A program made the translations under genes and the position numbers. From Paludibacteraceae bacterium (GTDB lineage Bacteria; Bacteroidota; Bacteroidia; Bacteroidales; Paludibacteraceae): DNA of 64,000 nucleotides. Positions 6,968-24,439 of the stretch are shown one piece after another (the first letter of the stretch is position 1; each line of letters begins with the position of its first letter). Under the pieces are notes generated by a model. That model saw only the letters and a list, made by a program, of their open reading frames with translations. It was not told where the DNA came from and did no database searches. The DNA is taken from contig JAFYZR010000082.1 of assembly GCA_017557345.1 (NCBI GenBank), positions 57,315-121,314 on the forward strand, in the 5' to 3' direction.

Positions 6968-6988
6968 TCTCTTTTTTTTGTTGAGGGA

Positions 6989-7098
6989 AAAATTGAACAT
7001 TTTGGGGTGGAAATGTGGTGATTTTATGCGAATTTCATAGCATAAAACCCCGACATAATACCGATGAGACCCCGATGAACCGTAAAATTGAACATTTT
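6989..7098. repeat. 15-bp direct repeat AAAATTGAACATTTT (6989-7003 and 7084-7098)
   Basis: Exact 15-mers 95 bp apart in the rhomboid/island intergenic region. Confidence 0.8.
7050..7082. repeat. 11-bp phased array E (CCGA-initiated units)
   Basis: ccgacataata / ccgatgagacc / ccgatgaaccg, starting at 7050, 7061 and 7072. Confidence 0.6.
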
Positions 7099-7114
7099 AA
7101 TGTTTTTTGTCTTA

Positions 7115-7176
7115 TAGCTTGTATAAAAAATTCCGCAAAACCACATCAAAAAAACTTATAAAATTTATACAAGCTA
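7115..7176. repeat. 13-bp perfect inverted repeat TAGCTTGTATAAA / TTTATACAAGCTA
   Basis: Arms at 7115-7127 and 7164-7176 with a 36-nt spacer. Confidence 0.75.
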
Positions 7177-7223
7177 ATCTCGATATAATACTGACATAAT
7201 AGGTACATAATAGTTACCACACT
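7172..7223. repeat. 11-bp phased array D (ACATAATA-type units)
   Basis: The core (A[TC]ATAATA) sits at 7183-7190, 7194-7201 and 7205-7212 with period 11, flanked by degenerate units at 7172 and 7216. Confidence 0.7.
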
Positions 7224-7238
7224 TTGATTTTTTACTAT

Positions 7239-7318
7239 GGCAAAGTGGCAAAGTTGACAATCTTGCTGAAAATGAGCGAATTATCTTGTTTTGAACTTTG
7301 CCACTTTGTCACTTTGTC
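7239..7318. repeat. Inverted pair of tandem 8-mers (GGCAAAGT x2 ... ACTTTGCC ACTTTGTC ACTTTGTC)
   Basis: Left arm 7239-7254 and right arm 7295-7310 pair at 15 of 16 positions around a 40-nt loop. The right arm overlaps the stop codon (7317-7319) of the DUF3987-like gene. Confidence 0.8.
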
Positions 7319-8543: not shown

Positions 8544-8619
8544 AGTTAAAGGTTTTTTTAAGATTAATAATATTTATTTAGTCAGCCCGAGCGGACTGAA
8601 TGTTTTTCAAAATCGAGCA

Positions 8620-8627
8620 CAAAGATA
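8620..8627 (-). promoter_or_regulatory. -7 box TATCTTTG (minus) upstream of the DUF3987-like gene
   Basis: Plus strand CAAAGATA. The same 10-mer ACAAAGATAC recurs at 8693-8702. Confidence 0.4.
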
Positions 8628-8946
8628 CAAAAATATTTTGGAATATGCAAATTTTTGTCCCTCGGTTAGCACGTTCGGTAATGAAAAACGCTACAAAGAT
8701 ACGATGAACATTTGCCTTTTTCCAAATTTTTTTGCAAAAAAATGCACAATTCTTATTCCCTATATATTCACTCTATGTTAACAAGTTTATATCGTCTTCT
8801 GTAAGTTGTTATTGATACACAAATTAGGTTGCAACGCCAACAGGCGTTTACGGCAAGAATTTAGTTGTTCTTTGGTGAGTTTATACTCCTCAAACAAGGT
8901 TAAATTATTGTCTAAATTACGAAACATAGCATTCTTTAAGTTTTAT

Positions 8947-9960
8947 CTATCCGTTCAAACCAATAGTATAGAACTCCATATCGGACATAGTGTAATCAAA
9001 ATCAAAACCACGACGCTCAAATTCATCTCGAATTTCTTGCCACTTTCCTTGATTTACTAATGGATATATTTCTTTGTTAAATTCCACGAAACGCAGTAAA
9101 ATGTCTGTCTTGCCAAGCATACCTAACGACCATACCATAGAACTAATGATAGGGATGTCACAGAGGCTATTATCAGTTATGTGAGGTTGTTTTGACCAAC
9201 GAGGATTGACACGCCAAGGGTTTCTAATATAATAATAGCCGATAGCATTCAATACGTTTTTATAGAATAATTCTTCTGCTTCTTCATCTCGCACAGGTAT
9301 TGATTGACGGGCGCAGAGATAGAGGTAGGCACTATCAGAAAGTTGCTCGCGGTCAATTTCAAAGGACGACGGCAACCGCAGGCGGACTTGAAGATAATTA
9401 TAGTCCTTGGCTAAATCCTGACGGTTATCGAGAACAAAGGATTGTGGGAAATGGTGACAGATGACGCGAGCGGACTCCATCTCATGGTGCTCATGCCATG
9501 CTTTTTCGACAAAAGGTGTGTAATAGTCATCCCAATGGGTGTCCAGATAACGGAGCGCGAACAGACGGTCAACGGAGGCGTTCTCAAAGAATGTACGAAG
9601 AATTTTTTGCTGTTCTTCAAAAGAGACATATGGCACACGTTCTTTGAGAGCCTTACGGGCTTTTATTCGCATTCCTTTCGTATCAAATTCCTTCAACAGT
9701 TGTGCCGTTGTTTTATTACGCGGTGCGGGGTCGAACTGATGGATAGTGCGTTGGTCTGCTTTGGCTTTGTGCTCTACCTGTACGCGAATCCAACTCGGAA
9801 TGCGAAAATTATTAGGCTCCGCAAGAGATTCGTCTTGCAATGACGCAACGAGCGCATAGCGAATTTTATGAGAAGGGCTATACTTTTCATCGTTTTCAAA
9901 TGTATCCCAACCATCCCAGTTGTTTTGCTCGAAAACATTGTTTAATTCATGTGCTGTCAT
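8947..9960 (-). CDS. Hypothetical protein (337 aa)
   Basis: Long ORF 38 nt downstream of the DnaB-like gene on the same strand. No motif recognised. Confidence 0.5.
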   Translation of the reverse strand: MTAHELNNVFEQNNWDGWDTFENDEKYSPSHKIRYALVASLQDESLAEPNNFRIPSWIRVQVEHKAKADQRTIHQFDPAPRNKTTAQLLKEFDTKGMRIKARKALKERVPYVSFEEQQKILRTFFENASVDRLFALRYLDTHWDDYYTPFVEKAWHEHHEMESARVICHHFPQSFVLDNRQDLAKDYNYLQVRLRLPSSFEIDREQLSDSAYLYLCARQSIPVRDEEAEELFYKNVLNAIGYYYIRNPWRVNPRWSKQPHITDNSLCDIPIISSMVWSLGMLGKTDILLRFVEFNKEIYPLVNQGKWQEIRDEFERRGFDFDYTMSDMEFYTIGLNG

Positions 9961-9998
9961 AGAAGTGTTGTTTTAAAAGATGATATATTCGTAGTCAA

Positions 9999-10850
9999 CT
10001 AAAACGGAAGATCAGACGGGGTGGAACCATCCTCTGCAACCCAAAGTTCGTGCTCAGGGTCATATACGCGAGCTGTATGGTGGTCAAACCGAAGCTTCAT
10101 CCCCTCGCAATCGCCCAAGTTATATCCGTATATATACATACATCCACGAATATCTTCACCCGTTCGTTCGTCATTGTATATATGATAATATTCCGGACGA
10201 TATGAGAAGATTATTTTCTGAGCATAATAAGCAAGATCTCCTCCCCAGAAGTCTCCTAATTGAGGTTGTTTTCCTTCAATACCACAACGTTCTTCCGTAT
10301 TGAGATTCAAACCATCAGCCACAACAATGCGGGTATCTAACATATAGGCTAAATCTCTTAATTCACGACACATATATTCTTCAGGAGTCATTCCGGTGCT
10401 TATCAATCTATCGTCAATCACTATATCTTGAAGGCTATCAATAAAGATACAATATGGACTTATCTCGCTTACATCGTCCCATAGTTTCGTTTTGATAGCG
10501 TGAAAATCATCAGCATGGAATAAGTGTGCAAAGTAAAGTGGCACATCTTTTAAGAAGGGGCACGAACACCCCTCTGTCCGACCGACATACCGACTGATTT
10601 TATCCGCTATTTTATGATGAGGATGTGCGTAGTACACAACTCGCTTACCAGCTTTAGCCATTTCAAGCGCCATTGATACCATGAGAGAAGTGCCACCCAT
10701 ACAGGGGTGGGAACCCACAAGAGTTAAATCTTTCTCTAAACTTTCACAGAGGCGCTGAAAACCACCTCGTTTTAGAGATTAGTCAACCTTGTTGGATTCA
10801 ATTCGCTTTGCGTAAGCGTCAACGATAGAATATATTTGTTGCGTTTTCAT
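9999..10850 (-). pseudogene. DnaB-C/RecA-like ATPase gene interrupted by an in-frame TAA
   Basis: ATG at 10850 reads MKTQQIYSIVDAYAKRIESNKVD, then TAA at 10779-10781. The same frame continues SLKRGGFQRLCESLEKDLTLVGSHPCMGGTSLMVSMALEMAKAGKRVVY into the 239-aa ORF. The Walker A position reads GGT instead of GKT. Confidence 0.6.
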
Positions 10851-11638
10851 AATGAGAAAAATGTAGTGTCAGAAGAAATCGTATTGAGCTGGTCATCATA
10901 TTCGCTTGAGGCTTGATATAATAAATACAAATCACCATTCTCATCTACGTGATATCCATAGGTGCCCCAAGCATAACTGCCTTCATACAAGAAATTTGTA
11001 ATGGTTTTATGAGATGAGTCAAATTGTGTATTCGCGTCTACCGAAAAATATGTGGGATCATTAACAGGGATTTTTATGGATAACTCTGAGTCAGTGATGT
11101 CATATATTTCATAGCTTGGGCCGCTTTTAGAACCACCCATGAAAAATCCTAAAAGCAATTCTAATTCACCATCGAAGTCAGCATCGTAGAATTGATATTC
11201 GGCATATGGCAGCAGGGGATTGACCGCATATGCATACGGCTGTGCATTGTAATGGAAAACGTACGAGTCGCCGTTCTTAAAACCGGAGAAATCTCTGGCT
11301 CTTACGATTTCGTATACATTTTTGCTCATAAACAAATTCTTGAAACAATGGCACTTTTCATTCCAATCAGTCCATACATATTCCTTGCCAGATTTTTGGG
11401 AGCGGAAGAAAATGCGTGCGCCATTTTCATATTCACTCCAACCATTCTTCTGCGAGTGATATGGATAGAGAATCCCGCTCACCTCAAAATCATTGATGAT
11501 GGTATCAAAACGGAAGTACACGCTAATAAAACGAGTGTCGTTCTGCAGCGGATTTTTAATTGCCAATTCTTGCACCCAATCATTGCCATATACAGCAAGC
11601 GAGAATATAGCAAATGAGATAAATAAAAAGCGTTTCAT
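10847..11638 (-). CDS. Secreted hypothetical protein with FG-GAP/VCBS-like DADFDGELELL motif
   Basis: Start taken at ATG 11638 (MKRFLFISFAIFSLAVYG signal peptide). Its TGA overlaps the ATG of the next gene (ATGA at 10847-10850). Confidence 0.5.
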   Translation of the reverse strand: MKRFLFISFAIFSLAVYGNDWVQELAIKNPLQNDTRFISVYFRFDTIINDFEVSGILYPYHSQKNGWSEYENGARIFFRSQKSGKEYVWTDWNEKCHCFKNLFMSKNVYEIVRARDFSGFKNGDSYVFHYNAQPYAYAVNPLLPYAEYQFYDADFDGELELLLGFFMGGSKSGPSYEIYDITDSELSIKIPVNDPTYFSVDANTQFDSSHKTITNFLYEGSYAWGTYGYHVDENGDLYLLYQASSEYDDQLNTISSDTTFFSL

Positions 11639-11817
11639 GGAGTTTTTTGTGTATTTAAATACGATGGTGGCAATGCCAACAATAATAATGGCTGCCTTAT
11701 TCATAGTTGTAGTTAGTAAAAAAGTTCGTGAATGGAGTTAAGGTTTAGTCGATAATTTCTATCGATAACCTGGGCTTATTCAAAGATGGTATCCACTTCT
11801 TCATTTAATGTAAATTT

Positions 11818-12681
11818 TTACTTAAAAACAAATGATTCTAATTGTGTCATTACTTCCCAAAATTCTCGTGGAAGACGTAAGCGCATTTCCTCAATGATAT
11901 ATTCAGGAATGTCATCATAGAACGCATGTGCTATTCCGCCTGTGATGCAAGCAAGTGTATCACTATCTCCACCAAGCGAGACCGCTAATCGAATAGCAGA
12001 TTCAAAGTCATGGCTATCAAAGAAAGCTATGAGCGCCGGAGGAACAGTGCCTTGACACGACGCCTCCCAACCATAAGAAGGGCGTATCTCATCGCATGTG
12101 TGATGCAAATCGTAGCCAAACGTTTCCTCAATACTTTCTCGAATCGTTTCTTTTGAATCGCCTCTATGAGCCATCCAGATTGCAACAGCAACAGCCTGCG
12201 CGCCTTTAATACCTTCCGGATGGTTGTGGGTGATTTCAGCAGACCGTTTGCCTAATTCCATTGCATCCCGAAACGTATATGCAGCCCAACCACAAGCGGA
12301 AGCTCGCATGGCAGAACCATTGCCCCAAGAATTATATGGATGCCGTTCTAATGACCTACTATAAGTCATATCTTCACGACTATAATCGGCGAGCAACTGC
12401 GGAGCAAATAACCATCTTGAAAACCCGCCTCCATAGCCCCCCATAGGGCAAGGATACTTCTTTGCCCACGAGACAAGCTTATCTTCCAATGCAGATTGAG
12501 AGCGGTCTGTGCTACTTAACCAATCTGCAACGGCAATAGTCATAATACTATCATCCGTATAGTTAGCCTGCTTGTCAAACAATGGCTGAAAATCCGGAGA
12601 TTTGATATTGTCAAACTCATAAATCGAGCCGACGGTGTCACCAATTAGGGCGCCTAAACAAGGATAATATCGCCATTTCAT
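11818..12681 (-). CDS. ADP-ribosylglycohydrolase family protein (DraG/Tri1/ARH-like)
   Basis: GALIGDTVGS near the N-terminus, GNGSAMR, and a C-terminal GGDSDTLACITGG. These are the characteristic ARH metal-site motifs. The start could also be 12717. Confidence 0.8.
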   Translation of the reverse strand: MKWRYYPCLGALIGDTVGSIYEFDNIKSPDFQPLFDKQANYTDDSIMTIAVADWLSSTDRSQSALEDKLVSWAKKYPCPMGGYGGGFSRWLFAPQLLADYSREDMTYSRSLERHPYNSWGNGSAMRASACGWAAYTFRDAMELGKRSAEITHNHPEGIKGAQAVAVAIWMAHRGDSKETIRESIEETFGYDLHHTCDEIRPSYGWEASCQGTVPPALIAFFDSHDFESAIRLAVSLGGDSDTLACITGGIAHAFYDDIPEYIIEEMRLRLPREFWEVMTQLESFVFK

Positions 12682-12745
12682 ATACGTACTATTATATGAG
12701 CGTGATTTCGGGAACATGTATTTAATTTAAGAGCCAATCGTTGTA

Positions 12746-12753
12746 CAAATCTA
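12746..12753 (-). promoter_or_regulatory. -7 box TAGATTTG (minus) upstream of the ARH gene
   Basis: Plus strand CAAATCTA matches TAnnTTTG. Confidence 0.4.
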
Positions 12754-12782
12754 CCTCTCCATTAAATATTGGAAATATACAC

Positions 12783-15716
12783 CTATTCATCTTGCTGCAT
12801 TGCTGATAGCCTATAATTACGATGTAATTTTTCTAAAAGGAAAGTCGCTCCACAAACCTTATTTGTACATGCATAATCAAGATCCGACCTTCCGATAATC
12901 ATTTCTAATTTAGATCCACATTGGGGACAATATATCTCATCTCTTTCCAAATGACCTATATGATTTTCAACGGCCCTCTTCAAACTTAGCGGAATAGAAT
13001 CTGGTCTATGCTCTTGCAAAAATGACAACCTACGAGAAAAAACTTGATGTGAACAACATGTTGCACATCGACCGCAGATTACCCATCCATTAGGACACTT
13101 TTTGGTATCACGTTCATCTATCGGTTCCTGACAATCAGGATTAAGGCAATGACTCAAATAAATTTTCAACCCTTTCTTGATACAATTACTGTTTATGCAC
13201 TCATAATGCGAAGATACGGACACCCCAAGATTCGTCAATCCCATTGATGGCATCATTAACCGACCGCACTCTCTACAGAATAAATGCTTAGCAAATTGAT
13301 TAAATCGGTTAATCAACGTAACAAATTTAAGATATTTACCATTAACGCACCGATGTCCAGCATAGTCTACTTCACTCATATCGAACCCCATTATATGACA
13401 GAAGTCATACATAGTGTACTCTTTCCAATCTGAGTGAAAAACCAATCTGTTTTTAGCGCAATAAGTGTTACGACACCAATAGCGTGTATTCCCCATTTCG
13501 TCTTTTTTCTCTAGTTCTCTCCCCTCGCAAAATATTACCCCATGTGGTCTTCCATAATTTCTTTCTATTCTTCTTTTTCCTATATACTTCCCTCTATCAT
13601 CATATTCATCTTTATATTTTCTCCATTCGATTCCTCCGCACTCGTCAAAGAGTTGGTAAATAAGAGGATGTGACCGTTCTCTAAAATCCTCGTTTGTTAA
13701 ACTAGTTAACAACAACGATAAAATATCACGCTCAACAAAAAACTCTTTCCGAACTTGGAATTTAAGCATCGCTTCAATCACAAGATCTACATCAAAACAT
13801 ACATGAATTTGCTTGTTATTGTGCTGCAACTGTTGATTTTTAGAAGTCAAGACTAGTAATGGCTCAAGTGATTTTGAGATAAAATTACTCTCCATCAAGT
13901 AAAAGATGTAGCGCAGGATTTTAACTTGTTCATATTCGGAAAACAAATAGAAATACTTCGAAAGTTGGTCAAATTCAATTTTTTTATCTTCCGAATCAAC
14001 TTTTACATAATTTTCATACCACTCTATGACAGATAAATATTCACTATCATGTTTTGGAACATTAAATTTAATATCTAATTCTTTGAACTTTCGCAATAGC
14101 AAGTAATCAAAAGCAAAACGTTCCTCTGACATGTCTTTAGTGGATTCTAATTTGGAAATATACCAATCATGCATAATCTCCTCGGCAAGATTTTTATCTA
14201 TATAGCCAAATTTGAACCATTCATTAAGCCCCCTTATAGGATCCTGATTATCGTTCAACATCATGCGAAGCCACTCATCTTTTGAGGGAGCAGGAACAAT
14301 TTCACATCTCCATAACTTCACATATTTCCCATCAACAACTTTTTTTGTTTCCTGAATAATATCATCTACTAGTTGAGACATACTCGTTTCCCATCTGTTC
14401 ATATGCGCGCAAGCGGAACTTCCGTCCCAACCTGAATGTTCCCTCAAAATAACAGCGCACGCTTTTACAACAAGTTTTGCTTCCTCTATATGAGTGTTGT
14501 AAAATTGAACAATGGTATCATCATCACAATTTTCTAGCGTTTTAACAATAGCTTCATCACTAATTCTATCCCTAAGCGACAAGTCAAAATTAGAGATGTA
14601 AAGCCAAGCTTTTTCCTCGTCCTCTAAATCTGCATACTGAGAAGCATAACAATCGCGGAAACGCGAACATGTCATCTCAGCAACATTATGGCTTTCCATC
14701 GCCATTATGAATTCTGCATCATTTCTGTAATCACCAGTAAAGAAAGCTTCTACTGCTTTGGCTTTCACAACAAAATCTTCTATCTGTTCAATGATACCTA
14801 ACAATATCTCCTTATGCGTGAAGAAGGAATGAAAAATATGGACTAACTTGTTTGACTCTATATCGGGTAAAATATATTTTGAGAGGCATAACAAGAAATT
14901 CGCATTAATTTCGTCAGATTGTCCTAAAGATTTTACCTTAACCAAAGTTTTGCAACATTGTTCAAATGTATAATCAGCTTCACACTCAAGTAGATAAGGC
15001 TTAGTATCGAGCAGAATATCTGCATAATCCCCAGATTTAGCCCAGTGAACGGTAGAATACGATTGCAATGCCCGAACTAGCGCAGAAGAAGCAATTTTTC
15101 TATAGCCGATATCACCTTTCCAAAAATGTTCAAAAATAAATGTAAAACCATCTTCCTCTTTAGGATGTCGAACCATATAGGCTGTCATCCTTCCTTTTCT
15201 CTTGTCAATTGCAGCCTTGTAAAATACCAAGTCGCCATCAATTATAGTTTCACCCTCTTGGCAATTATTTACATGATAAAAGCATTCGTCCCCATTCTCG
15301 TTTTTTACTAGCCCATAAACTTGATAACCATAGTGTCCATCCCTGAATAGTTGAACGATACCATACGAAAAAGGCACGTCTTTAAGCCAGCTCTCATTAC
15401 TATCCCTAACATATCGAAAACAAGGATTATTTTTCTCATCTTTGTCACGATGCTTACTTTCCAATTGAGAATTGGATTGCACGACAACTTTTGGAATTAT
15501 TTTTCCATAAGCGTTAGTAACGGTTTCGAATCTCACACCATCAACGCCTTTGTCATCGATATTTTTAAACTGTTGCTCTAAGCGTGAGTACAAATCATCA
15601 GACAGCCTATAATTTGGATCACTTTCAACTTCAAAGCCATTGCTCTCACACCACTGCGTTAGAGTAGACATCCCAATGTTTAACTCCTTACATGCTTTTA
15701 TTAGTTTTACAGCCAT
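12783..15716 (-). CDS. Large uncharacterised protein: IF2-N-like HTH, cold-shock-like barrel, helical core, four C-terminal zinc ribbons
   Basis: Start at ATG 15716 (MAVKLIKACKELNIGMSTLTQWCESNGFEV). YGIVQLFRDGHYGYQV...DGDLVFYKAAIDKRKGRMTAYMV is CSD-like. C-terminal Cys pairs: CRNTYC, CRECG...ECINSNC, CLNPDC...CPNGWVICGRCATCC, CPQCG...CTNKVC. Confidence 0.6.
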   Translation of the reverse strand: MAVKLIKACKELNIGMSTLTQWCESNGFEVESDPNYRLSDDLYSRLEQQFKNIDDKGVDGVRFETVTNAYGKIIPKVVVQSNSQLESKHRDKDEKNNPCFRYVRDSNESWLKDVPFSYGIVQLFRDGHYGYQVYGLVKNENGDECFYHVNNCQEGETIIDGDLVFYKAAIDKRKGRMTAYMVRHPKEEDGFTFIFEHFWKGDIGYRKIASSALVRALQSYSTVHWAKSGDYADILLDTKPYLLECEADYTFEQCCKTLVKVKSLGQSDEINANFLLCLSKYILPDIESNKLVHIFHSFFTHKEILLGIIEQIEDFVVKAKAVEAFFTGDYRNDAEFIMAMESHNVAEMTCSRFRDCYASQYADLEDEEKAWLYISNFDLSLRDRISDEAIVKTLENCDDDTIVQFYNTHIEEAKLVVKACAVILREHSGWDGSSACAHMNRWETSMSQLVDDIIQETKKVVDGKYVKLWRCEIVPAPSKDEWLRMMLNDNQDPIRGLNEWFKFGYIDKNLAEEIMHDWYISKLESTKDMSEERFAFDYLLLRKFKELDIKFNVPKHDSEYLSVIEWYENYVKVDSEDKKIEFDQLSKYFYLFSEYEQVKILRYIFYLMESNFISKSLEPLLVLTSKNQQLQHNNKQIHVCFDVDLVIEAMLKFQVRKEFFVERDILSLLLTSLTNEDFRERSHPLIYQLFDECGGIEWRKYKDEYDDRGKYIGKRRIERNYGRPHGVIFCEGRELEKKDEMGNTRYWCRNTYCAKNRLVFHSDWKEYTMYDFCHIMGFDMSEVDYAGHRCVNGKYLKFVTLINRFNQFAKHLFCRECGRLMMPSMGLTNLGVSVSSHYECINSNCIKKGLKIYLSHCLNPDCQEPIDERDTKKCPNGWVICGRCATCCSHQVFSRRLSFLQEHRPDSIPLSLKRAVENHIGHLERDEIYCPQCGSKLEMIIGRSDLDYACTNKVCGATFLLEKLHRNYRLSAMQQDE

Positions 15717-15737
15717 AGTATAAGCGTATTTCAAGAA

Positions 15738-15833
15738 TTATATAGCACCTATATATACAAAATTTGCGTGATATGTTACTAATGTTTTACGTTCATCCCA
15801 AAACGCTACTTCATATTTATCAAAGTATGCCAT
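15738..15833 (-). pseudogene. 31-codon stub of a BspA-type LRR gene
   Basis: MAYFDKYEVAFWDERKTLVTYHANFVYIGAI then a stop. The first 57 nt match the 5' end of the 15856..17277 gene at 48 of 57 positions (my own count). Confidence 0.6.
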
Positions 15834-15855
15834 AACTATTTATCTAATGTTTACA

Positions 15856-17277
15856 TTACAAGATTTGATTTTTGTTCCTACTTTCTAATTCAAAGTAACA
15901 TTCCTTTGTCGCAAGGATATCTGAAAGAGCATCGTGAGCATCATCAAAATTGCGATTAAACAATTTAAGATATAGTTCTTGTAGTGTGGGCCATTTATAA
16001 CCGCCATAGTACGAATTAGGATTGGGGATCGCGCAAAAGTTCATGGAATTTTTCATTGTGCAGATAGATGATTTTTTAAATAGCGAATCATAGTCCAATC
16101 CCAAACGATATAATTCTGCGCATACAATATGAAGATCAAAATCAACATTATGCCCCACGATCTTCTCCGCACTTTCTAGATCTTTCATGAATTCCTCTAG
16201 AACCAAGCGCAATGGCCAACCTTCTCGCTTTGCTCGTTCGGTTGTTATCCCATGCACTTCTGAGGCTTCGTCTGGGATATTGAAGCCTTCCGGATATATG
16301 ATTGCCGATTTACGTTTAAGTTCAATTCCATCTTCATCCACCAGCAACCATGCTAATTGCACTAAACGCGGCCAATTATCCGAGTCTTTAATAGGAGCAT
16401 TGTAGTTGTGAGGAAGCCCAGCTGTCTCGGTGTCAAAGAAAAGGTATTTTGGTTGAGAGGTGGAGACTTTCTCATTACTCAATGCCTTCGCGTCATAACA
16501 ATAGATATCATCCTCTCCTTCACACGAAAAAACAATCAATTCAATAGATGCAGGATCTACTTTATCTCCTTCTTTAAGTTCGCTTCGAGTTGATAACGGC
16601 CAATAAATAGGCTCGCGTCTTTTTTTTATATGGGCTTCTAATGCAAGCCGGTCATCATAATTATTCTCATCATTGTGAATATCTTTCTTCACTCTAACTT
16701 CTACATATTCAATCATAGCGAGAATGTCTTCTGGAATATTTTCTCTTGCGACTTCCTCCCAGACTTTGCTCTCCGCATCTTCTTCAACTAAAATATCACG
16801 AAAATCCTTCAAACCATCCATCTCTGCAAAACGAGCATATTGGCCTTTGGGTATACGGATTTCTTTTAGCCCTTTACAACCCGTAAAGGCGCCTTCTCCA
16901 ATGTGTGTGACACTATTATGAAGAATTACACTTGTTATACCGGAGCAATAATCTCCTGTGTTAACGGCATGAGTGTGAGCCACAATAATAACCGGCTGGT
17001 AGCAATATGCGAACGCAACCTCTCCTATATTAGTTATGCTATCAGGTATCACTATACTTTTTAGCCCTTTGCACCCCATAAAAGCTCCATCTTCTATACA
17101 AATGACGCTGTCGGGAATAATCACATCTGTCATCCTAAAACAACCTTCGAAGGCGCATTCTCCAATCCTTGTAACGCTGCTTGGGATAGTATATTCACCT
17201 TGAAAGTCTTTAGGGCATCGAACTAATGTTTTTAGATCATCCGAAAACTCTACTCCATATTTATCGATGTATGCCAT
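15856..17277 (-). CDS. Fusion protein: N-terminal BspA-type leucine-rich repeats + C-terminal DEDDh (DnaQ/epsilon-like) 3'-5' exonuclease
   Basis: LRR units have the form IPxSVxxIGxxAFxGCxxL (x4). Exonuclease motifs: YLFFDTETAG (ExoI), GHNVDFDLHIV (ExoII), AHDALSDILAT (ExoIII, DEDDh type). No signal peptide. Confidence 0.75.
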   Translation of the reverse strand: MAYIDKYGVEFSDDLKTLVRCPKDFQGEYTIPSSVTRIGECAFEGCFRMTDVIIPDSVICIEDGAFMGCKGLKSIVIPDSITNIGEVAFAYCYQPVIIVAHTHAVNTGDYCSGITSVILHNSVTHIGEGAFTGCKGLKEIRIPKGQYARFAEMDGLKDFRDILVEEDAESKVWEEVARENIPEDILAMIEYVEVRVKKDIHNDENNYDDRLALEAHIKKRREPIYWPLSTRSELKEGDKVDPASIELIVFSCEGEDDIYCYDAKALSNEKVSTSQPKYLFFDTETAGLPHNYNAPIKDSDNWPRLVQLAWLLVDEDGIELKRKSAIIYPEGFNIPDEASEVHGITTERAKREGWPLRLVLEEFMKDLESAEKIVGHNVDFDLHIVCAELYRLGLDYDSLFKKSSICTMKNSMNFCAIPNPNSYYGGYKWPTLQELYLKLFNRNFDDAHDALSDILATKECYFELESRNKNQIL

Positions 17278-17278
17278 T

Positions 17279-18139
17279 TTACCAATATATAGGTTCTTTA
17301 ATATTTTTTTCTATTATACCTAAATTCATCAGTTTTTTCTTCAAACTTTCATTTTCGCCGTCAGCATGATAATATATAGTCCAGTCCGCAGCATTGATAT
17401 CATGATTGACTTCAATTATCTTCTCCATGTATGGCTTGTCAATCTCGTTCAAAGAAAATCCCATAATGATGAAGTGCTTGATATTAGTGTACTTCTGAAA
17501 AGTTTCATTGTGGAGTTCTATAATTCCTGTTACATTTTTAGCTCCTTTTTCTATTTCTTGATTTATACTATCAATATTTGGATAAAGAAGTTCGTGCGCA
17601 GCCCTACTATCCTCTGCATGTTTCATTAATTTAACGTAATTTGCGCCATGACCTACTATAATAGCGTGTTCATCCTTAGCGAAGTCTATGACAGAGTTAT
17701 GTATATGGCAAATGTTATCTGCGTTGATATTGTATGATTTTTCTAACAGTAATGTATAGTTGAAGGTAAAATACAAAGATGAATTGTTGATAATATCTAA
17801 TAAGGGATGAAAATTAACGTTGATGTTACTATTTACAGATTTAATCCAATTCCCAAAGAACAGAGGCAGGTTCCTAACTAAATTTTGGACTTTATATGGA
17901 GCCATAGCTTCACCATTGTGCGAACGAATAAGATTCAAATAATTTACCTTTCCGAGCATCTCCTCAAAGTTACACCACCACATTTCATCTTTTATATTCT
18001 CATAGCCATAGATATCAACTAAGTAAGATTTTAAAGTAGCATTCCCTTGTACATGAGCATCTCTAAAATCTGAATATTTCGTCGGAAGCTCATGCTTAAG
18101 GTCAAATCCATTCCCAATTATGTATAGAGTATCCTTCAT
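17279..18139 (-). CDS. AbiH-family abortive-infection protein
   Basis: Start at ATG 18139 gives MKDTLYIIGNGFDLKHELPTKYSDF, the characteristic AbiH N-terminal signature. Its TAA (17279-17281) lies 1 nt from the ATG (17277) of the LRR-exonuclease gene. Confidence 0.7.
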   Translation of the reverse strand: MKDTLYIIGNGFDLKHELPTKYSDFRDAHVQGNATLKSYLVDIYGYENIKDEMWWCNFEEMLGKVNYLNLIRSHNGEAMAPYKVQNLVRNLPLFFGNWIKSVNSNINVNFHPLLDIINNSSLYFTFNYTLLLEKSYNINADNICHIHNSVIDFAKDEHAIIVGHGANYVKLMKHAEDSRAAHELLYPNIDSINQEIEKGAKNVTGIIELHNETFQKYTNIKHFIIMGFSLNEIDKPYMEKIIEVNHDINAADWTIYYHADGENESLKKKLMNLGIIEKNIKEPIYW

Positions 18140-18222
18140 TATTTGTGATTTTTCTTGCAACGGCCTCGAATTTATCTCATAAGTCTCTCTCTCGTATAGA
18201 TGGCAGTCGATATATTTAAATA

Positions 18223-19242
18223 TTACTCTCTTGTAATGTGGCTGAAAAAATTGTGCCAATCTATTTCGTCATTGTTATTAGCTAAACGGTAGTATTTTCT
18301 AAGTAATTGGTTTAGTTGTAGTGCATATTCAGCATTGAGCTCGTTATTCTCTAATATTTTCTTGGGCTCGTTCATGAAAGCCCCATATAATTCTTGCTTT
18401 CTTTTATGTTCCTTTTCAATAGTGGAAATGAGGGACGATATTCGTTCATTTAATAGGAATCGTCGATGATTATCTCTATTATATTTTGTTTTTGCTGCAT
18501 TAATATACTTTTGTTCTTCATCAATATAGGTTCTTTCTTGCATTGATTTATCTGCACCTATAATTCTCATGCTAGATGCCGCGCAAAATCCATGATCTCT
18601 ATATATTTTCTCGTCTATTTTCGGGAATAGCGAGTTTATATAACCATCATTGAAAACCTTTGATTTTTTATGAACAAAATACCAATCATCTTTCCCAGGA
18701 CAATTTTTAAAATGCTCCTCATTAATAATTGTAAATGAGTTCAAAATTTGTTCTATGTCAAGTTTATTAATATAACTTTCAACGTCATCTATTACCTCTC
18801 CTAAGGTAGGCAAAGATTGTTTTATAAAATATGTTCGAATGAGTTCTCTTTCTTGCTCTGTGTATCTCCAATCAACATAAACATCACTTCCGTTATTACA
18901 ATATATAATAAATTGGTATCCGCTACCACTATCTACAATAAACTTTGAACTTTTTGCTATACATTCTTTTGGAACACAAATACCATTTTCTTCCTTATAT
19001 AGAATCTCGTCATAGTTACTATATCTATGCAAGGAATTATCGTAGTAGTCGAAATCTTTCAAACCAATTATATATCTAGCTCTATCAGATTTGGAATCTT
19101 CAAATAAGATAGTATCGAGCAGCTGAAACTTTTCTGGCAAATTAGCGTCAGCAACACGAAATGTTCCATCAAGACATATAATAATCCCATTTTTTGAGTT
19201 GCTCAACAACACGCCAACTCTTAAGTTCTTTCGTCCTTGCAT
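18223..19242 (-). CDS. Hypothetical protein (339 aa), very AT-rich
   Basis: Long ORF, co-directional, 37 nt after the Sel1 gene and 83 nt before AbiH. No domain recognised. Confidence 0.5.
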   Translation of the reverse strand: MQGRKNLRVGVLLSNSKNGIIICLDGTFRVADANLPEKFQLLDTILFEDSKSDRARYIIGLKDFDYYDNSLHRYSNYDEILYKEENGICVPKECIAKSSKFIVDSGSGYQFIIYCNNGSDVYVDWRYTEQERELIRTYFIKQSLPTLGEVIDDVESYINKLDIEQILNSFTIINEEHFKNCPGKDDWYFVHKKSKVFNDGYINSLFPKIDEKIYRDHGFCAASSMRIIGADKSMQERTYIDEEQKYINAAKTKYNRDNHRRFLLNERISSLISTIEKEHKRKQELYGAFMNEPKKILENNELNAEYALQLNQLLRKYYRLANNNDEIDWHNFFSHITRE

Positions 19243-19279
19243 TTATTTGGAGTTTTTGATTAATATGCACATACATTAA

Positions 19280-21295
19280 TTACTCAAACACATTCATTCC
19301 TTCCGGTTGCCAGAGAATGCGAGTGCGGGAGAGATGGATGATATAGGGTTGAGTCTTTTTGCCAACAGGGATATAATCTTCCGGAGAATCTTCGTAGTCT
19401 TGCAAAGCGGCTTCAAAGGCTTTGCGGATACGAGAAAGTTTCTCATTGGCAGAGTTATTCGTTGGATCTATCAGTGTTTCAATACTTTGTGTGGTATCTA
19501 TTCGATTAGACAAGGTATTATACCATTGTTGCAACTCTTCCTTATAATCGCTAAGATACTTGATAGCAATACCTTCTGTATGATGAAGTAGCGTAAAATA
19601 GAGCGCCTTGGATAATATAGGCATCTTGATTTCCGCTGTCAACTTATTTCCTGTACTATCAATAAGGAATAGTTTGTATTTCTCGTCCACTAACAACATA
19701 GTGTCGTGCGGAAGGGATTTCTTCATTCGCATCTTAACGAAAGGCAATGTTCCCACAAACTGGACCAAATAGGAGAATGCCTTCTCCCAATTGGTGCCTG
19801 GTGTGAACGGAAACAAAATATATTCATAGTTAAAGTTATCTTCTGGATTACTCCTGTTTGGCTTGAAGCGCAAGAAGCCAGCGCAATCAGCTGGCAGATG
19901 TTCTTCTGAGAACAATGCTGACCAATAATAGAACTCTGTTTTTTTGTCTCTATCTAACCAAACACGCATCATTTGTTGCGGCTCATAGTCCCCGGAATAC
20001 GAACTAATGATATCTTCTGCACTCTGTGCGCGAGTAGGCAAATAAACAAAAAGATAGTCCTTGCGACGGAAAGCAGCACGGAGTTGACCGAGATGTTGCT
20101 GAATGTATTGGTTCAACTCGGAGTGAACATTCTTCTCCAAGAAGATAAGTTCATGTTGATTACCCATGATGCGTGGGTCGCGTATTTGCACATCATAAAT
20201 AGGAAAAACAAAATCATCATGCGGATACTTTACTTCAGATTTAAGCGGAACTAAAGATTTTGTTTTAGTAGCCTTATGTTCTTCGATATCTTTTTGGGAA
20301 ATCTCGGGGCTATTATCCGGCAACCAGCGTGGTGGTTGTTCGGTGTTAGAAGGAATGGTTGTAGCAGGAGAAACGTGGTTGTCACAAAAAATAGAATCTA
20401 ATTCTGGAGCATGATATTGAGCGACAGCCCGTTTGATGCGATCTTCCAAAGAAAGGGTTAATAGCGCCTTACAGGAATCATAGTTGTCCAATGATTCTTT
20501 TGCTCCTATATTAGAGATTGCGTTTTTCCATTCCGGGTCATGGTTAACCTCACGTTTGGCCTGTTCAAAGAGGGAAAGAGCCGTATGGAAATAGTTCGCC
20601 ATTACATACATTACACCTAAATTATTATATGCGAAGTAATTCTTGTGCTCCTTAATTAAGCGACGATAGAAATAAGCAGCTTTGTTATAATCAATCGGGG
20701 TAAATGTGCCGTGCTCATAACTAATGGCCATATTCATCATGCCTATTTCTTCACCCAATTCGGCACCTTTCTCTATCCATTCACGACCTTTTTCTGTTTT
20801 GCCGCTTAACAATAATAGTACTCCGCAAGCCACCATTCCCTCTTTAATCCCGTGTTGTGCAGCCAATCGGAAATAATTGAATTGCTCTTGACTACTATCT
20901 TCCAACGAGCCTAATAGTGTGTACGCGCCATATTTCTTATATATTTTAGCCAGGCGCAAAAGATCTCTCTGGAGCATCTCTAATAATTCAGGGTCTCCAT
21001 CTTTGAGAGCCAAATTATCATAGTTAGTGAGCGCTTCCCAAAATGCCGAATCTTTTTTATAAGAAGCGGCATCAATAATACCGGTGAACTTGGTAAATTC
21101 TTTCAGTGGCTTCGTATCAACAGGATATTGCCATGTGATAAAATCCGGACCAATGCGATAAAATGTATATAGAGGGAGAAGGCGCGCACGAGAATCGACT
21201 TCCTCAACCGCTACTGGGTTTGAAGAAGTGGTGGTATTAGAATCTTCCGTATGTTTACCGAAGAATACCCTTTTTATGTTGTCGAAAAGTGACAT
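19280..21295 (-). CDS. Sel1-like repeat protein with a large uncharacterised C-terminal half
   Basis: Sel1/TPR-like units (AAQHGIKEGMVACGVLL..., MMNMAISYEHG..., AYNNLGVMYVM) in residues ~130-260. Residues ~330-671 carry no motif I recognise. Confidence 0.6.
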   Translation of the reverse strand: MSLFDNIKRVFFGKHTEDSNTTTSSNPVAVEEVDSRARLLPLYTFYRIGPDFITWQYPVDTKPLKEFTKFTGIIDAASYKKDSAFWEALTNYDNLALKDGDPELLEMLQRDLLRLAKIYKKYGAYTLLGSLEDSSQEQFNYFRLAAQHGIKEGMVACGVLLLLSGKTEKGREWIEKGAELGEEIGMMNMAISYEHGTFTPIDYNKAAYFYRRLIKEHKNYFAYNNLGVMYVMANYFHTALSLFEQAKREVNHDPEWKNAISNIGAKESLDNYDSCKALLTLSLEDRIKRAVAQYHAPELDSIFCDNHVSPATTIPSNTEQPPRWLPDNSPEISQKDIEEHKATKTKSLVPLKSEVKYPHDDFVFPIYDVQIRDPRIMGNQHELIFLEKNVHSELNQYIQQHLGQLRAAFRRKDYLFVYLPTRAQSAEDIISSYSGDYEPQQMMRVWLDRDKKTEFYYWSALFSEEHLPADCAGFLRFKPNRSNPEDNFNYEYILFPFTPGTNWEKAFSYLVQFVGTLPFVKMRMKKSLPHDTMLLVDEKYKLFLIDSTGNKLTAEIKMPILSKALYFTLLHHTEGIAIKYLSDYKEELQQWYNTLSNRIDTTQSIETLIDPTNNSANEKLSRIRKAFEAALQDYEDSPEDYIPVGKKTQPYIIHLSRTRILWQPEGMNVFE

Positions 21296-21325
21296 AACTT
21301 AACGTGCCAATTCATTTTTCGAGTG

Positions 21326-21333
21326 CAAAAGTA
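21326..21333 (-). promoter_or_regulatory. -7 box TACTTTTG (minus) upstream of the Sel1 gene
   Basis: Plus strand CAAAAGTA, about 31 nt upstream of the ATG at 21295. Confidence 0.45.
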
Positions 21334-21398
21334 GTACATTTTCCGGATATGTCCAAACATTTTTTATTTGCAAGGCTTGCAAAAGTGGATTTTTGTTC

Positions 21399-21464
21399 TC
21401 AGCCTGATGGAAAACAGCGGTCAAGCGCATAGTGTCTTATGAGTTTTTGCTTCGTAACCGGCAT
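21399..21464 (-). pseudogene. 21-codon stub resembling the N-terminus of a Bacteroides WYL-type/HTH regulator
   Basis: MPVTKQKLIRHYALDRCFPSG then a stop. The IR(Y/H)xALDRCF pattern matches N-termini of Bacteroidales WYL-domain regulators as I remember them. It has its own -7 box at 21493-21500. Confidence 0.35.
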
Positions 21465-21492
21465 GGTATTTCAAATTATTAGGAATCGGGTG

Positions 21493-21500
21493 CAAAGGTA
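21493..21500 (-). promoter_or_regulatory. -7 box TACCTTTG (minus) upstream of the regulator stub
   Basis: Plus strand CAAAGGTA. Confidence 0.4.
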
Positions 21501-21575
21501 GTAAAAAAAAGTGAGATATGCAAGAAAAAATGTAATTTTTGGGTTTAGGGATAAAAAAGCAGGGCAACTACCGGT

Positions 21576-22061
21576 TTATGGTTTGAGCGGGTTGGAGCAG
21601 GAGATATAAAAGAATGAACGCATTTGTTTGAGGATGGCTCTGCAAGAGACATCAATATCTTGGTAAGCTGCTTCGAAATCGCCTGTGTACCACGGATCTG
21701 CCACATCTCTGTTTTCGCCTGTCCATTGCATCATCAGCGATACTTTGCCGTCTGTATCTTCTCCGATAAGACGAGTCAGCCAGCGGATGTTTGACCGGTC
21801 GGCGCAAATGATATAATCAAAGTAATCATAATCGGCACGCGTTATTTGTCGTGCAGTATGGAAATCAAACGGAATGCCTTTTTCGCGCAGTTTGCGTTTT
21901 GCCGGAGGATAAATATCATTACCTATCTCTTCGGTTGAAACGGCAGCAGAAGCGATTTCCAGATTCCCTATTTTGGCTTGACGGCATAATTCTTTCATCA
22001 CCATTTCCGCCATCACCGAACGGCATATGTTGCCGTGACATATGAATAGGATTTTACTCAA
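21576..22061 (-). CDS. Low-molecular-weight protein-tyrosine phosphatase
   Basis: ILFICHGNICRS is the CX5R(S) P-loop at the N-terminus, and a DPWY-type Asp loop is present. Confidence 0.9.
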   Translation of the reverse strand: MSKILFICHGNICRSVMAEMVMKELCRQAKIGNLEIASAAVSTEEIGNDIYPPAKRKLREKGIPFDFHTARQITRADYDYFDYIICADRSNIRWLTRLIGEDTDGKVSLMMQWTGENRDVADPWYTGDFEAAYQDIDVSCRAILKQMRSFFYISCSNPLKP

Positions 22062-22903: not shown

Positions 22904-24439
22904 TTAACGTGCTTTTGGCACCAAGGTTACCAGCGGAATGATCATTTCTTCGAGCGAAATACCACCATGCTGGAACGTATTGCGGTAGTATTGCGCGTAG
23001 TAATTAAACTGATTAGGATAGGCAAAGAAATCAGAACCGGTACAAAAAGCATAACTGCTGCTTACATTCGGGCAAGGAAGACCGATTCGTTTCGGTTGTT
23101 CGATACTCATTACGTTCTTTGAACTGCAGTTAAGCGCTTTACCCACTTTATAGCGGATGTTGGTATTGGTATTCTTATCAGCAATAATCTGTACGGCATT
23201 CTTCACACGCGTTGTGCCATGATCGGTTGTCAGCACCAAGGTAAAACCTAATTCAGACGCACGACGCAGCAAATCATAAGTAGGCGAGTGCTTAAACCAA
23301 CTAAGCGTCAAACTCCGATATGCCGATTCATCATTAGCCAACTCACGCATCATTTTACTTTCCGTGCGTGAGTGAGAGAGCATATCAATAAAATTGAAAA
23401 CAACAATATTGAGTGGAGTCTGTACGCCTTTTAATTGAGCAATTACGCGCTCGCAAAAATCACTCTCGTTTACTTTCCAATAATTGAAACTCTCGCGTCT
23501 GCGATATCGATCCAATAGTGTTTGTACGAGTTCTTTTTCATATTGATTCTTGCTCTCTTCATCACCTTCTTCAACCCAATATTGCGGATACATCTCTTGA
23601 ATCTGTAATGGTAGCAGACCAGAGAAAATAGCATTTCTGGCATACTGCGTAGCCGTAGGCAATATACTTGTATATTGCTCCTCGTTGCTTATGGTGTAGA
23701 ATTCGCTAATGAGCGGTTGGATAGTTTTCCATTGGTCATAACGGAAATTATCAATCACACAAAGTAATACTTTCTCTCCTTTATCCAACAAAGGAAAGAC
23801 AGTATGCTTCATTACATCGTGAGACATAACAGGCCTGTTCTCCGCGCCAAACCAGCCTTCGTAATTCTTTGCAATCCATTTTGCAAAGGCTGCATTGGCT
23901 TGCGTGCGTTGGTCGTCTATTAAAGAACGCATCGAAGAATTTTCTAATTCGATATCCCAACGGCTCAATGTGCGCTCAATTGCTTGCCATTCCTCTATCG
24001 TGCTTGCCGTATCAATCATATAGGAGATATCACTCCATTCTTGACGATAGTTCTGTTGTACTTGCTCTGTGACAATCGCTTGTTGGTGAATATGTTTCTT
24101 AAGGCACAAGAGAATTTGACTTGGATTAACAGGTTTGATGAGATAATCGGCTATCTTTTCTCCTATAGCCTGCTCCATGATATGTTCTTCTTCGCTTTTG
24201 GTAATCATCACCACCGGCACTTCAGGATGCAAACGTTTGATTTCCTGTAACGTCTCAAGTCCTGTCAGACCGGGCATATTTTCATCTAAAAAAACGATAT
24301 CGGGCACGGCATCAGCCAATGCATCTATTGCATCTTCGCCATTGCTGGCGGTTACTACCTCGTAGTTTTTACCTTTTAGGTAAATGATATATGGTTGTAA
24401 CAAATCTATTTCGTCATCAACCCAGAGTATTAGGTTCAT
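22904..24439 (-). CDS. porX: PorX-type response regulator (REC + PglZ/alkaline-phosphatase-like domain)
   Basis: N-terminal receiver domain (ILWVDDE...DENMPG...KS) followed by a ~350-aa PglZ-like domain. Length 511 aa, comparable to Porphyromonas PorX. Confidence 0.75.
   Translation of the reverse strand: MNLILWVDDEIDLLQPYIIYLKGKNYEVVTASNGEDAIDALADAVPDIVFLDENMPGLTGLETLQEIKRLHPEVPVVMITKSEEEHIMEQAIGEKIADYLIKPVNPSQILLCLKKHIHQQAIVTEQVQQNYRQEWSDISYMIDTASTIEEWQAIERTLSRWDIELENSSMRSLIDDQRTQANAAFAKWIAKNYEGWFGAENRPVMSHDVMKHTVFPLLDKGEKVLLCVIDNFRYDQWKTIQPLISEFYTISNEEQYTSILPTATQYARNAIFSGLLPLQIQEMYPQYWVEEGDEESKNQYEKELVQTLLDRYRRRESFNYWKVNESDFCERVIAQLKGVQTPLNIVVFNFIDMLSHSRTESKMMRELANDESAYRSLTLSWFKHSPTYDLLRRASELGFTLVLTTDHGTTRVKNAVQIIADKNTNTNIRYKVGKALNCSSKNVMSIEQPKRIGLPCPNVSSSYAFCTGSDFFAYPNQFNYYAQYYRNTFQHGGISLEEMIIPLVTLVPKAR

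Follow-up and report, generated by a model that had tools for sequence, protein, structure and literature searches.

Do five adjacent genes of unusual composition make up one defence machine, or do they merely share a site on the chromosome? The question is raised by a 64,000-nucleotide (nt) stretch of DNA from a Paludibacteraceae bacterium (GenBank assembly GCA_017557345.1, contig JAFYZR010000082.1, positions 57,315 to 121,314 of the forward strand), here called the window, in which positions 12783-19242, here called the block, hold a low-G+C run of genes that includes AbiH and an LRR-exonuclease fusion. An original prediction took the five open reading frames (ORFs) of the block for one uncharacterised conflict system, which, if true, would have been a new defence system. 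We conclude instead that the block is probably exchangeable cargo of a defence-type chromosomal hot spot with independent modules in a rumen or gut Paludibacteraceae genome, and not a five-gene machine. This reading draws on what we observed of the anatomy and domain content of the block, of its replacement between strains and of the distribution of its genes, which occur independently of one another. Nucleotide positions are those of the whole window, L-numbers denote compared contigs or loci, and P-numbers denote compared proteins.

Anatomy and Composition of the Block

The ORF calls confirm five genes lying head to tail on the minus strand, and the predicted gaps of 1-83 nt come close to the 83, 1, 22, and 21 nt measured in order. 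Exact protein matches at NCBI (MBR5677901-MBR5677909) identify the window as part of a Paludibacteraceae metagenome-assembled genome. Pfam and PADLOC also bear out the presence of AbiH and of a fusion between an LRR domain and a DEDDh exonuclease. In the order in which they are read, the genes are as follows:

18223-19242, minus strand: ORF of 339 amino acids (aa), with no match in the domain libraries
17279-18139, minus strand: AbiH, 286 aa from the ATG of the NCBI call, or 326 aa if it starts at the TTG at 18259
15856-17277, minus strand: fusion of LRR_5 and RNase_T, 473 aa (Pfam, PADLOC)
15738-15833, minus strand: LRR stub, 31 aa, a duplicated 5' end of an LRR_5 gene
12783-15716, minus strand: 977-aa ORF from its ATG; 983 aa if it starts at the TTG at 15734

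The block is compositionally foreign, as had been predicted, although the size of the shift was overstated. Where 30-32% G+C had been claimed against 45-50% in the neighbourhood, the computed values are 35.6% for the block, 42.6% for the window and 41-45% for the neighbouring genes. In windowed profiles of the 64 kb, the block is the G+C minimum among all windows of its size (mean 42.4, standard deviation 2.4) and also the top tetranucleotide outlier, with an L1 distance of 0.31 from the rest of the window (mean 0.163, standard deviation 0.05). The shift is uneven, as G+C rises from 31.9% in the 339-aa gene, the lowest of the block, through 32.6% in AbiH and 36.3% in the 977-aa gene to 39.7% in the LRR-exonuclease gene, which is near background.

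The smallest of the five ORFs deserves separate mention. Within the stub, 56 nt (15778-15833) have 86% DNA identity to the 5' end of the LRR-exonuclease gene (17222-17277), and the same 56 nt also resemble the start of the exonuclease gene of a related strain (L013). We read the 31-aa stub as a probable recombination scar. A search of 6900-21700 for repeats that would mark integron-like or att sites returned only this duplication and short repeats at chance level.

Replacement of the Segment between Strains

The near-identical strain L013 aligns with the window at 94-95% nucleotide identity over 24895-19286 and again over 10678-2697 (blastn). Between these two breakpoints the window holds 8.6 kb and L013 holds 7.7 kb of different genes, with only short patches aligning (blastn). 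The left breakpoint, 19286, lies just upstream of the stop codon (19280-19282) of a Sel1-like gene and the right one, 10678, lies inside a DnaB_C-like gene. The compositionally odd and strain-variable segment is therefore larger than the block as first drawn: it spans 10679-19285 (36.8% G+C) and adds an ADP-ribosylglycohydrolase (ARH) gene and a 285-aa ORF. It is flanked by:

19280-21295, minus strand: Sel1-like anchor gene, 671 aa (Pfam Sel1 below cut-off)
7317-10718, minus strand: right flank with DUF3987 (primase/helicase-like, 408 aa), a 337-aa protein and a DnaB_C-like protein (239 aa) (Pfam, PHROGs)

Both flanks are conserved. The Sel1 protein is 92% identical to its counterpart in L013, 68.5% identical to that in L098, and 67% and 81% identical, in its N-terminal and C-terminal halves respectively, to a split gene in L004. 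On the other side, identity to L013 is 93-98% for the DUF3987 and 337-aa proteins and 68% for the DnaB_C-like protein, the lower value being due to the breakpoint that falls inside its gene. The Sel1 gene heads a different gene array in each of L013, L004, and L098, and the array begins right past its stop codon. The four arrays compare as follows:

Window, 10679-19285, minus strand: 339-aa gene, AbiH, LRR-exonuclease, stub, 977-aa gene, ARH, 285-aa gene
L013 slot: LRR_5 379 aa, PD-(D/E)XK 821 aa, 103-aa fragment, 39-aa ORF, LRR-exonuclease 429 aa, 315-aa gene, VWA-like 274 aa
L004 array: Sel1, 339-aa gene, four unrelated genes, ARH, DUF218
L098 array, first part: Sel1, 364-aa gene (sub-threshold SIR2_2), 242-aa, 266-aa, and 189-aa genes
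L098 array, continued: LRR-exonuclease 479 aa, TPR gene, 262-aa gene, VWA-like gene

Conserved flanks thus bound a content that differs between the window and L013, as is expected of a hot spot, and L004 and L098 add two more versions of the array that follows this Sel1 gene. Individual genes of L098 are common to L004 and L013, and a low G+C content marks the cargo of all four arrays. The L004 contig (1-16081) is particularly informative. Its upstream host sequence has 54.9% G+C and the whole array 29-43% (Sel1 40%, 339-aa gene 28.5%, cargo 33.9%, ARH 43%), and such a low-G+C array in a 55% G+C genome indicates that the array moves horizontally. The whole unit from Sel1 to ARH looks like a horizontal acquisition. 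A DUF4160/DUF2442 pair lies at the upstream edge of this array.

The slot of L013 carries apparent scars of its own. Its 103-aa ORF (9555-9863) begins like the 977-aa protein of the window (60% identity over 58 aa) and ends in the last 20 residues of a 273-aa gene of L004, while its 39-aa ORF (9881-10000) stands just before the LRR-exonuclease gene. We regard this chimera and the 39-aa ORF, like the stub of the window, as marks of cassette shuffling. The 364-aa gene that follows Sel1 in L098 was tested for distant homology to the 339-aa protein and to AbiH and is a homologue of neither.

One System or Independent Modules?

If the five ORFs formed one conserved system, the set should be met again, and it recurs nowhere else. 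Homologues of the 977-aa and 339-aa proteins are never found beside AbiH or the exonuclease, the same slot of the 94-95% identical strain L013 holds another gene set, and one of the five ORFs is a duplicated gene fragment of 31 aa. In the absence of co-occurrence elsewhere, whether of the 977-aa gene, of the 339-aa gene or in the 24 fusion contexts described below, the single-system reading is largely refuted. It does draw on real features, as the genes lie head to tail on one strand with gaps of 1-83 nt, share a low G+C content, and have no intergenic -7 box or terminator between them. The G+C content is nonetheless heterogeneous across the block, and we regard an operon whose five products act together as extremely unlikely.

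The transcriptional evidence can be set out briefly. Both -7 boxes named in the original prediction exist. Its further statement that the block has none inside is literally wrong, since six minus-strand matches to TAnnTTTG occur there (12981, 13322, 14585, 14963, 15131, and 17965), but it is right in spirit, as all six are intragenic and the intergenic gaps of the block contain none. The upstream box is:

21326-21333, minus strand: Bacteroidota-type -7 box (TACTTTTG) upstream of the Sel1 gene, a motif match only

This box is a possible promoter for the co-oriented array. The 8-mer itself is weakly enriched in the window (78 found against 59 +/- 8 expected). Scans for sigma-70 promoters and terminators gave chance-level results only, and such scans are ill-suited to Bacteroidota.

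Other parts of the original prediction have held up. No named multi-gene system was recognised: PADLOC-DB v2 returns single-gene AbiH, a Cas-associated DEDDh exonuclease, and a weak PDC-S48 match only. Neither is the block a prophage structural region. PHROGs gave no structural matches, only generic exonuclease, ARH, and primase-like ones; IMG/VR scans yielded no relatives of AbiH or of the 339-aa and 977-aa families; and a phage tblastn search with the C-terminal domain of the 977-aa protein found no match. The conflict or defence flavor of the neighborhood is also supported. Related arrays and fusion loci carry HsdR, AbiEi/AbiEii, YhcG nucleases, and CHAT plus caspase proteins, and most cargo is unannotated. 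Our literature searches found no description of a defence system that combines LRR and DEDDh domains.

AbiH and the LRR-Exonuclease Fusion

AbiH is a single-gene abortive infection protein of Lactococcus lactis, known since 1996. The window protein covers the whole Pfam PF14253 profile (positions 1-260 of 260, E 5e-41), scoring 141.9 bits where the cut-off is 30.9. It also matches the AbiH model of PADLOC (5e-15) and has the N-terminal, glycine-rich IIGNGFD motif. It is a divergent member, with ~29% identity to a plasmid AbiH and 34% to the AbiH of L066. A PDB sequence search with it returned noise only, while a scan of JGI metagenomes for AbiH gave one distant contig, L016, without an adjacent exonuclease. 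In the one plasmid context checked, that of a Klebsiella plasmid, AbiH stands alone beside phoH. The lactococcal protein has been predicted to be sirtuin-like and NAD+ depletion has been suggested, the mechanism of AbiH being unknown (PMC13064643, 2026 review).

The fusion next to AbiH matches LRR_5 (2e-24) and RNase_T (5e-12) in Pfam and a DEDDh model in PADLOC (4e-26). All five DEDDh residues (D282, E284, D381, H448, and D453) are present, and in a 10-sequence alignment (A3) D282, H448, and D453 are invariant and E284 and D381 occur in at least 90% of rows. Contrary to what the original prediction implied, the fusion is not unusual, for the family that joins LRR_5 (BspA-type) to RNase_T has thousands of members (3448 matches at E<1e-5). 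At 50-67% identity, its exonuclease domain is close both to free-standing exonucleases of 189 aa and to the exonuclease domain with which DnaE-type Pol III alpha begins, and by sequence it is therefore a replication-type proofreading domain fused to repeat modules. Stand-alone 189-aa relatives with at least 50% identity occur in Bacteroidota, Saccharibacteria, Parcubacteria, and Elusimicrobia. In Flavobacteriales and relatives, the exonuclease forms the N-terminus of a ~1400-aa DnaE-type Pol III alpha (exonuclease-PHP-polymerase), as seen in L035, L047, and ~20 other loci among L017-L096.

The surroundings of this family were compared in 24 exonuclease-fusion contexts, drawn from the best 80 of at least 592 genome matches and a few metagenome contigs. 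Apart from the window, AbiH adjoins the fusion in one of them, where the repeats are WG repeats; the remaining 22 of the 24 contexts lack AbiH. This recurring link had not been singled out in the original prediction. Neighbors of the other fusions include HsdR, YhcG/DUF1016 nucleases, Trypsin_2, CHAT plus caspase plus DUF2971, AbiEi/AbiEii, and LRR_5 paralogues, which amounts, on domain content, to a defence-island-like setting. In the window, AbiH and the exonuclease gene are separated by a single nucleotide (TAA-A-ATG). In the extra case, found in a Prevotella sp. (L066/L069), AbiH lies directly upstream of a 943-aa protein that joins WG_beta_rep to the same C-terminal exonuclease, and overlaps the start of its gene. 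L066 and L069 are identical in sequence and count as one event. The AbiH proteins of this locus and of the window are divergent and the repeat type differs, so the pair is not merely the same insertion seen twice.

Arrays of LRR_5 paralogues without a Pfam-detected fused domain, interleaved with small unknown genes, were also observed (L015, L106-L110). These lie downstream of a monofunctional transglycosylase gene and beside LRR-Sel1-exonuclease fusions, and L109 has an AbiEi/AbiEii pair.

The 977-aa Protein and Its Family

The 977-aa protein begins with 50 residues that resemble IF-2, followed by a cold-shock-like OB domain (~115-185), a helical middle and a Cys-rich, multi-zinc C-terminal domain (690-977). 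The OB assignment comes from a weak match of residues ~115-185 to a cold-shock domain (CSD), the sole match of the family in a PDB sequence search. Two parts of the gene can be delimited:

15567-15716, minus strand: IF-2-like tag, codons 1-50, with 70% identity to the N-terminus of a Paludibacteraceae IF-2 (P0067)
12786-13649, minus strand: Cys-rich C-terminal domain, with 13 invariant and 6 near-invariant cysteines in an alignment of 81 sequences (A4)

Pfam IF2_N is not called on the N-terminus, and the link to IF-2 rests on the direct 70% identity. The same tag heads LRR_5-PF14487-Sel1 proteins (P0033, P0091, and P0098) and ~1500-aa helicase-S1 proteins (P0020 and P0021), and a truncated copy is found in L013. 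From this distribution, it seems that a domain of a host translation factor was grafted onto proteins of conflict type.

Full-length homologues are few, with two clusters (48-51% identity) among 5.8 billion proteins and one more (P0262) in a representative library. The C-terminal ~250 residues are much more widespread: a profile search of 1.84 billion cluster representatives gave 1567 at E<=1e-3 and 215 at E<=1e-30. The best-scoring proteins are mostly ~1000-1250 aa long, and in five of the nine that were scanned with Pfam, an N-terminal CSD or S1 is the only significant domain. AlphaFold2 models the C-terminal domain with a predicted local distance difference test score (pLDDT) of 91.2 and a predicted template modelling score (pTM) of 0.80 from the 81-sequence alignment, and Foldseek finds no match to this model in the PDB at E<=1e-3. 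NCBIfam, PHROGs, and PADLOC gave nothing meaningful for the whole protein. On these searches the family is evidently widespread and unnamed, with no annotation beyond the cold-shock domain and no structural relative.

Restriction-modification (R-M) genes recur around this family. One full-length homologue (L003) directly follows a type I R-M cassette (hsdS/hsdR/N6_Mtase). A more distant relative, on a Klebsiella pneumoniae plasmid (L104, NZ_CP076519.1, 185386-187248), is a 620-aa "cold shock domain-containing protein" with the C-terminal Cys-rich domain, and on Klebsiella IncF plasmids (128 records) the order is hsdM-hsdS-YecA-CSD protein-hsdR-SprT protease. A second distant relative, on a Prevotella plasmid (L105), shares the C-terminal domain and follows M-S-R. 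These make three independent R-M-linked contexts among the five examined (L003, L104, and L105). In L001, the other full-length homologue is flanked by an unrelated 481-aa gene and a trypsin-like gene. None of the contexts of 977-aa homologues includes AbiH, an exonuclease fusion or the 339-aa gene. The window gene itself is not R-M-adjacent, and no hsd genes occur among the ORFs scanned over 367-30999. We found no description in the literature of cold-shock-domain proteins in type I R-M loci. CoCoNuT was considered as a match, as it brings CSD and zinc-ribbon modules into McrBC-type systems, but its proteins are different.

The 339-aa Protein

The 339-aa protein has no match in Pfam, NCBIfam, PHROGs or PADLOC, and a PDB sequence search with it was empty. 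Structure prediction of this and the 977-aa protein, proposed as a way to place them, yielded models and a small OB match but no whole-protein relative. In the AlphaFold2 model (pLDDT 76.5), an N-terminal OB-fold-like barrel is followed by a long C-terminal helix; Foldseek aligns ~60 OB-like residues to IF1/eIF1A-type domains only, and finds no fold match for the whole protein in PDB or BFVD.

Homologues form seven clusters among 5.8 billion proteins, and their settings vary. One accompanies the Sel1 gene in L004, while the gene is absent from L013 and L098. In L006-L009, a member lies between SLFN/AlbA_2-HATPase_c_4-Fic-like_C and DUF2971 proteins on one side and two unknowns, HIRAN, and a 790-aa DUF3987 protein on the other, and in L010 a homologue stands beside recR.

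Remaining Cargo and Flanks

Two further genes complete the variable segment:

11818-12717, minus strand: ARH (Pfam 2.7e-37), with its own -7 box at 12746-12753
10847-11704, minus strand: 285-aa protein, with a weak XAC2610-family match (21.7 bits against a cut-off of 35)

The ARH protein has 75% identity to its counterpart at the end of the L004 array and none in L013. Longer homologues (419-422 aa) lie near exonuclease fusions in L026 (8920-10185) and L033 (3200-4456). The 285-aa protein is 56% identical to the product of a 262-aa gene downstream of the LRR-exonuclease in L101 (6114-6902), and a homologue adjoins the exonuclease fusion in L024 (8579-9886). The recurrence of both beside other repeat-exonuclease fusions suggests a shared cargo pool.

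On the right flank, the DUF3987/337-aa/DnaB_C-like module may be the remnant of a mobile-element replication module, and no integrase or tRNA was found near it. At the outer end of this conserved flank, where a gap separates the DUF3987 gene from a rhomboid gene, lies an inverted repeat of 23 nt (7238-7311, 87% complementary, 28-nt loop) that is rich in GGCAAAGT motifs. Elsewhere in the window, a PglZ gene (22904-24439) was rejected as part of a bacteriophage exclusion (BREX) system, being a fusion of a response-regulator receiver and PglZ in a housekeeping context conserved in L013. A 3134-aa ORF (32750-42154) probably encodes a giant surface protein; Pfam finds nothing in it but five Listeria-Bacteroides repeat (Flg_new) domains.

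A Model of the Slot and Its Alternatives

An anti-phage role, every molecular mechanism proposed here and co-transcription from the Sel1 promoter are what we infer for the hot spot. The slot is bounded upstream by the 671-aa Sel1-like gene and downstream by the DnaB_C-like/337-aa/DUF3987 module, and related strains fill it with different co-oriented, low-G+C genes from a shared pool. Turnover may rest on homologous recombination, for which the flanks and the 5' ends of cassette genes, both conserved, would be the sites of exchange, with the LRR stub and the chimeric fragments as its presumed scars. AbiH, given the sirtuin-like prediction, could act in abortive infection, either by depleting NAD+ or by ADP-ribosylating a target. 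The LRR_5 repeats may bind a protein ligand, and the exonuclease, if active, would trim the 3' ends of nucleic acids. These two could form a two-gene unit, as the same adjacency recurs once with a WG-repeat version. The 977-aa protein would be an accessory or back-up defence protein that senses RNA or single-stranded DNA, with a placement like that of the restriction-linked PrrC/RloC. The 339-aa protein, OB-fold-like at its N-terminus, travels with the Sel1 gene, and the ARH and the 285-aa protein are further cargo.

Several points weigh against this explanation. In the defence library, AbiH alone counts as a defence-system protein; matches of the exonuclease are limited to a Cas-associated DEDDh model and the candidate PDC-S48, and the rest match none. 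The samples are small, both for the syntenic variants, of which three were compared, and for the exonuclease-fusion contexts, and the genome-contig scan found no close AbiH relatives, which weakens the AbiH side of the pairing test. The LRR_5 paralogue arrays (L015, L106, and L109) could serve a role other than defence. No recombinase or integrase domains were found within 7-21.5 kb (7317-21295), and the turnover mechanism of the slot is one that we infer. Finally, the genes of the block share one orientation and are separated by short gaps that contain no -7 box, so they may be co-transcribed and could cooperate in this strain despite having no joint conservation.

A narrower proposal, compatible with a mosaic, is that AbiH as a SIR2-like effector and a DnaQ-like exonuclease with a repeat domain (LRR_5 or WG) form a two-gene functional core among unrelated neighbors. 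The single-nucleotide spacer in the window argues for it, as does the independent Prevotella case, in which AbiH is 34% identical, the repeat type is another and the genes overlap. AbiH is otherwise rare across the ~1.2 Mb of fetched loci, and the L098 array combines a sub-threshold SIR2_2-like gene with an LRR-exonuclease. Nevertheless, AbiH is absent from most fusion contexts (22 of 24), it stands alone elsewhere, as beside phoH on the Klebsiella plasmid, and two adjacencies can arise by chance because defence genes cluster; L066 and L069, having the same sequence, also count only once as evidence for the pair. We hold this core to be a tentative possibility that is somewhat unlikely. Less likely still is that the mosaic hides two new defence architectures, an R-M-linked CSD/multi-zinc family and a two-gene system of AbiH with a repeat-sensor DnaQ-like exonuclease. 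In that case, the exonuclease would have been recruited from the replication machinery, given that its domain is at least 50% identical to proofreading-type exonucleases, and the IF-2-like tag of the 977-aa protein, acquired in this lineage from the host's own IF-2, could be a ribosome-targeting tag or an "integrated decoy" that senses phage factors attacking IF-2.

The region might also serve something other than host defence against phages. If the stretch from Sel1 to DUF3987 were the remnant of an integrated mobile element, satellite or integrative, the block would be accessory cargo serving that element and not the host. The DUF3987 (primase-like PHROG) and DnaB_C-like genes that flank the cargo fit this, as do the 339-aa homologue near a 790-aa DUF3987 protein in L006 and the clearly foreign Sel1-339-cargo-ARH array in the 55% G+C genome of L004. 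Yet that array has no DUF3987 module, the flanks occupy the same chromosomal site in two strains, and an integrase, tRNA, terminal direct repeat, structural phage genes, and IMG/VR relatives are all missing, which makes this origin distinctly improbable. A still more doubtful alternative is an interbacterial immunity locus (polyimmunity or acquired interbacterial defence), in which ARH would reverse ADP-ribosylation and the repeat proteins would bind toxins. Bacteroidales are known to have immunity proteins of the ARH type and arrays of orphan immunity genes, and the array here is likewise co-oriented, low in G+C, strain-variable, and marked by 5' gene fragments; it contains ARH, the weakly XAC2610-like 285-aa protein, and abundant Sel1, TPR, and LRR repeat proteins. 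However, catalytically intact nucleases (the DEDDh domain, with its residues conserved, and the PD-(D/E)XK protein of L013), an AbiH effector, and a putative nucleic-acid-binding protein of 977 aa are atypical of immunity proteins, the neighbors of family members are R-M, AbiE, and YhcG genes, and no toxin, secretion-system or recombinase gene is nearby (7317-21295 for recombinases).

Taken as cargo of a hot spot, the block represents a familiar type of object, a strain-variable defence-type site, in the poorly studied rumen Paludibacteraceae, and its value is as a source of candidates. One is the large family in which repeat domains are joined to a proofreading exonuclease of the replication type. 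Another is the CSD/multi-zinc family found repeatedly in type I R-M operons, including those of clinical Klebsiella IncF plasmids. The possible partnership of AbiH and the exonuclease could help to explain how AbiH works, and the cassette scars indicate how such arrays are reshuffled.

Comparison with Known Systems

The exonuclease domain of the window shares the RNase_T fold and the five catalytic residues of DnaQ/Pol III epsilon-type DEDDh exonucleases. It differs from these in being fused to N-terminal BspA-type LRR_5 repeats, or to Sel1 or WG repeats in its relatives, and, unlike DnaQ-type and Cas-associated DEDDh proteins, it resides in a variable island and not in a replication or CRISPR locus, with no cas genes nearby. 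AbiH resembles the lactococcal protein in its full-length, above-threshold Pfam match and in the IIGNGFD motif. It departs from that protein in its Bacteroidota host and in abutting an exonuclease fusion, and its identity to the other AbiH proteins retrieved is only ~29-34%.

In an arrangement like that of PrrC/RloC, a full-length homologue of the 977-aa protein (L003) and two more distant CSD/Cys-rich relatives (L104 and L105) lie between or directly after hsd genes, and putative RNA-binding modules, here a CSD, are a further likeness. The 977-aa protein nevertheless has no sequence or fold similarity to PrrC/RloC, no ABC ATPase, and no anticodon-nuclease or other identified catalytic domain, and its genes in the window and in L001 are not beside R-M genes.

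The closest overall parallel is with the defence islands and hot spots of enterobacteria and Acinetobacter. There, as here, the flanking genes are conserved and the content varies. In the slot described here, near-identical strains have exchanged the content, G+C is low, and the pool of cargo includes AbiH, PD-(D/E)XK, and exonuclease fusions, with R-M, AbiE, and CHAT plus caspase genes in related loci. The slot differs in having no integrase or prophage marker, and AbiH is the one cargo gene that PADLOC recognises as a defence-system protein. In contrast to those islands, its cassette turnover leaves 5' stubs and chimeric fragments behind, and its Sel1 anchor appears to move together with the array, as in L004.

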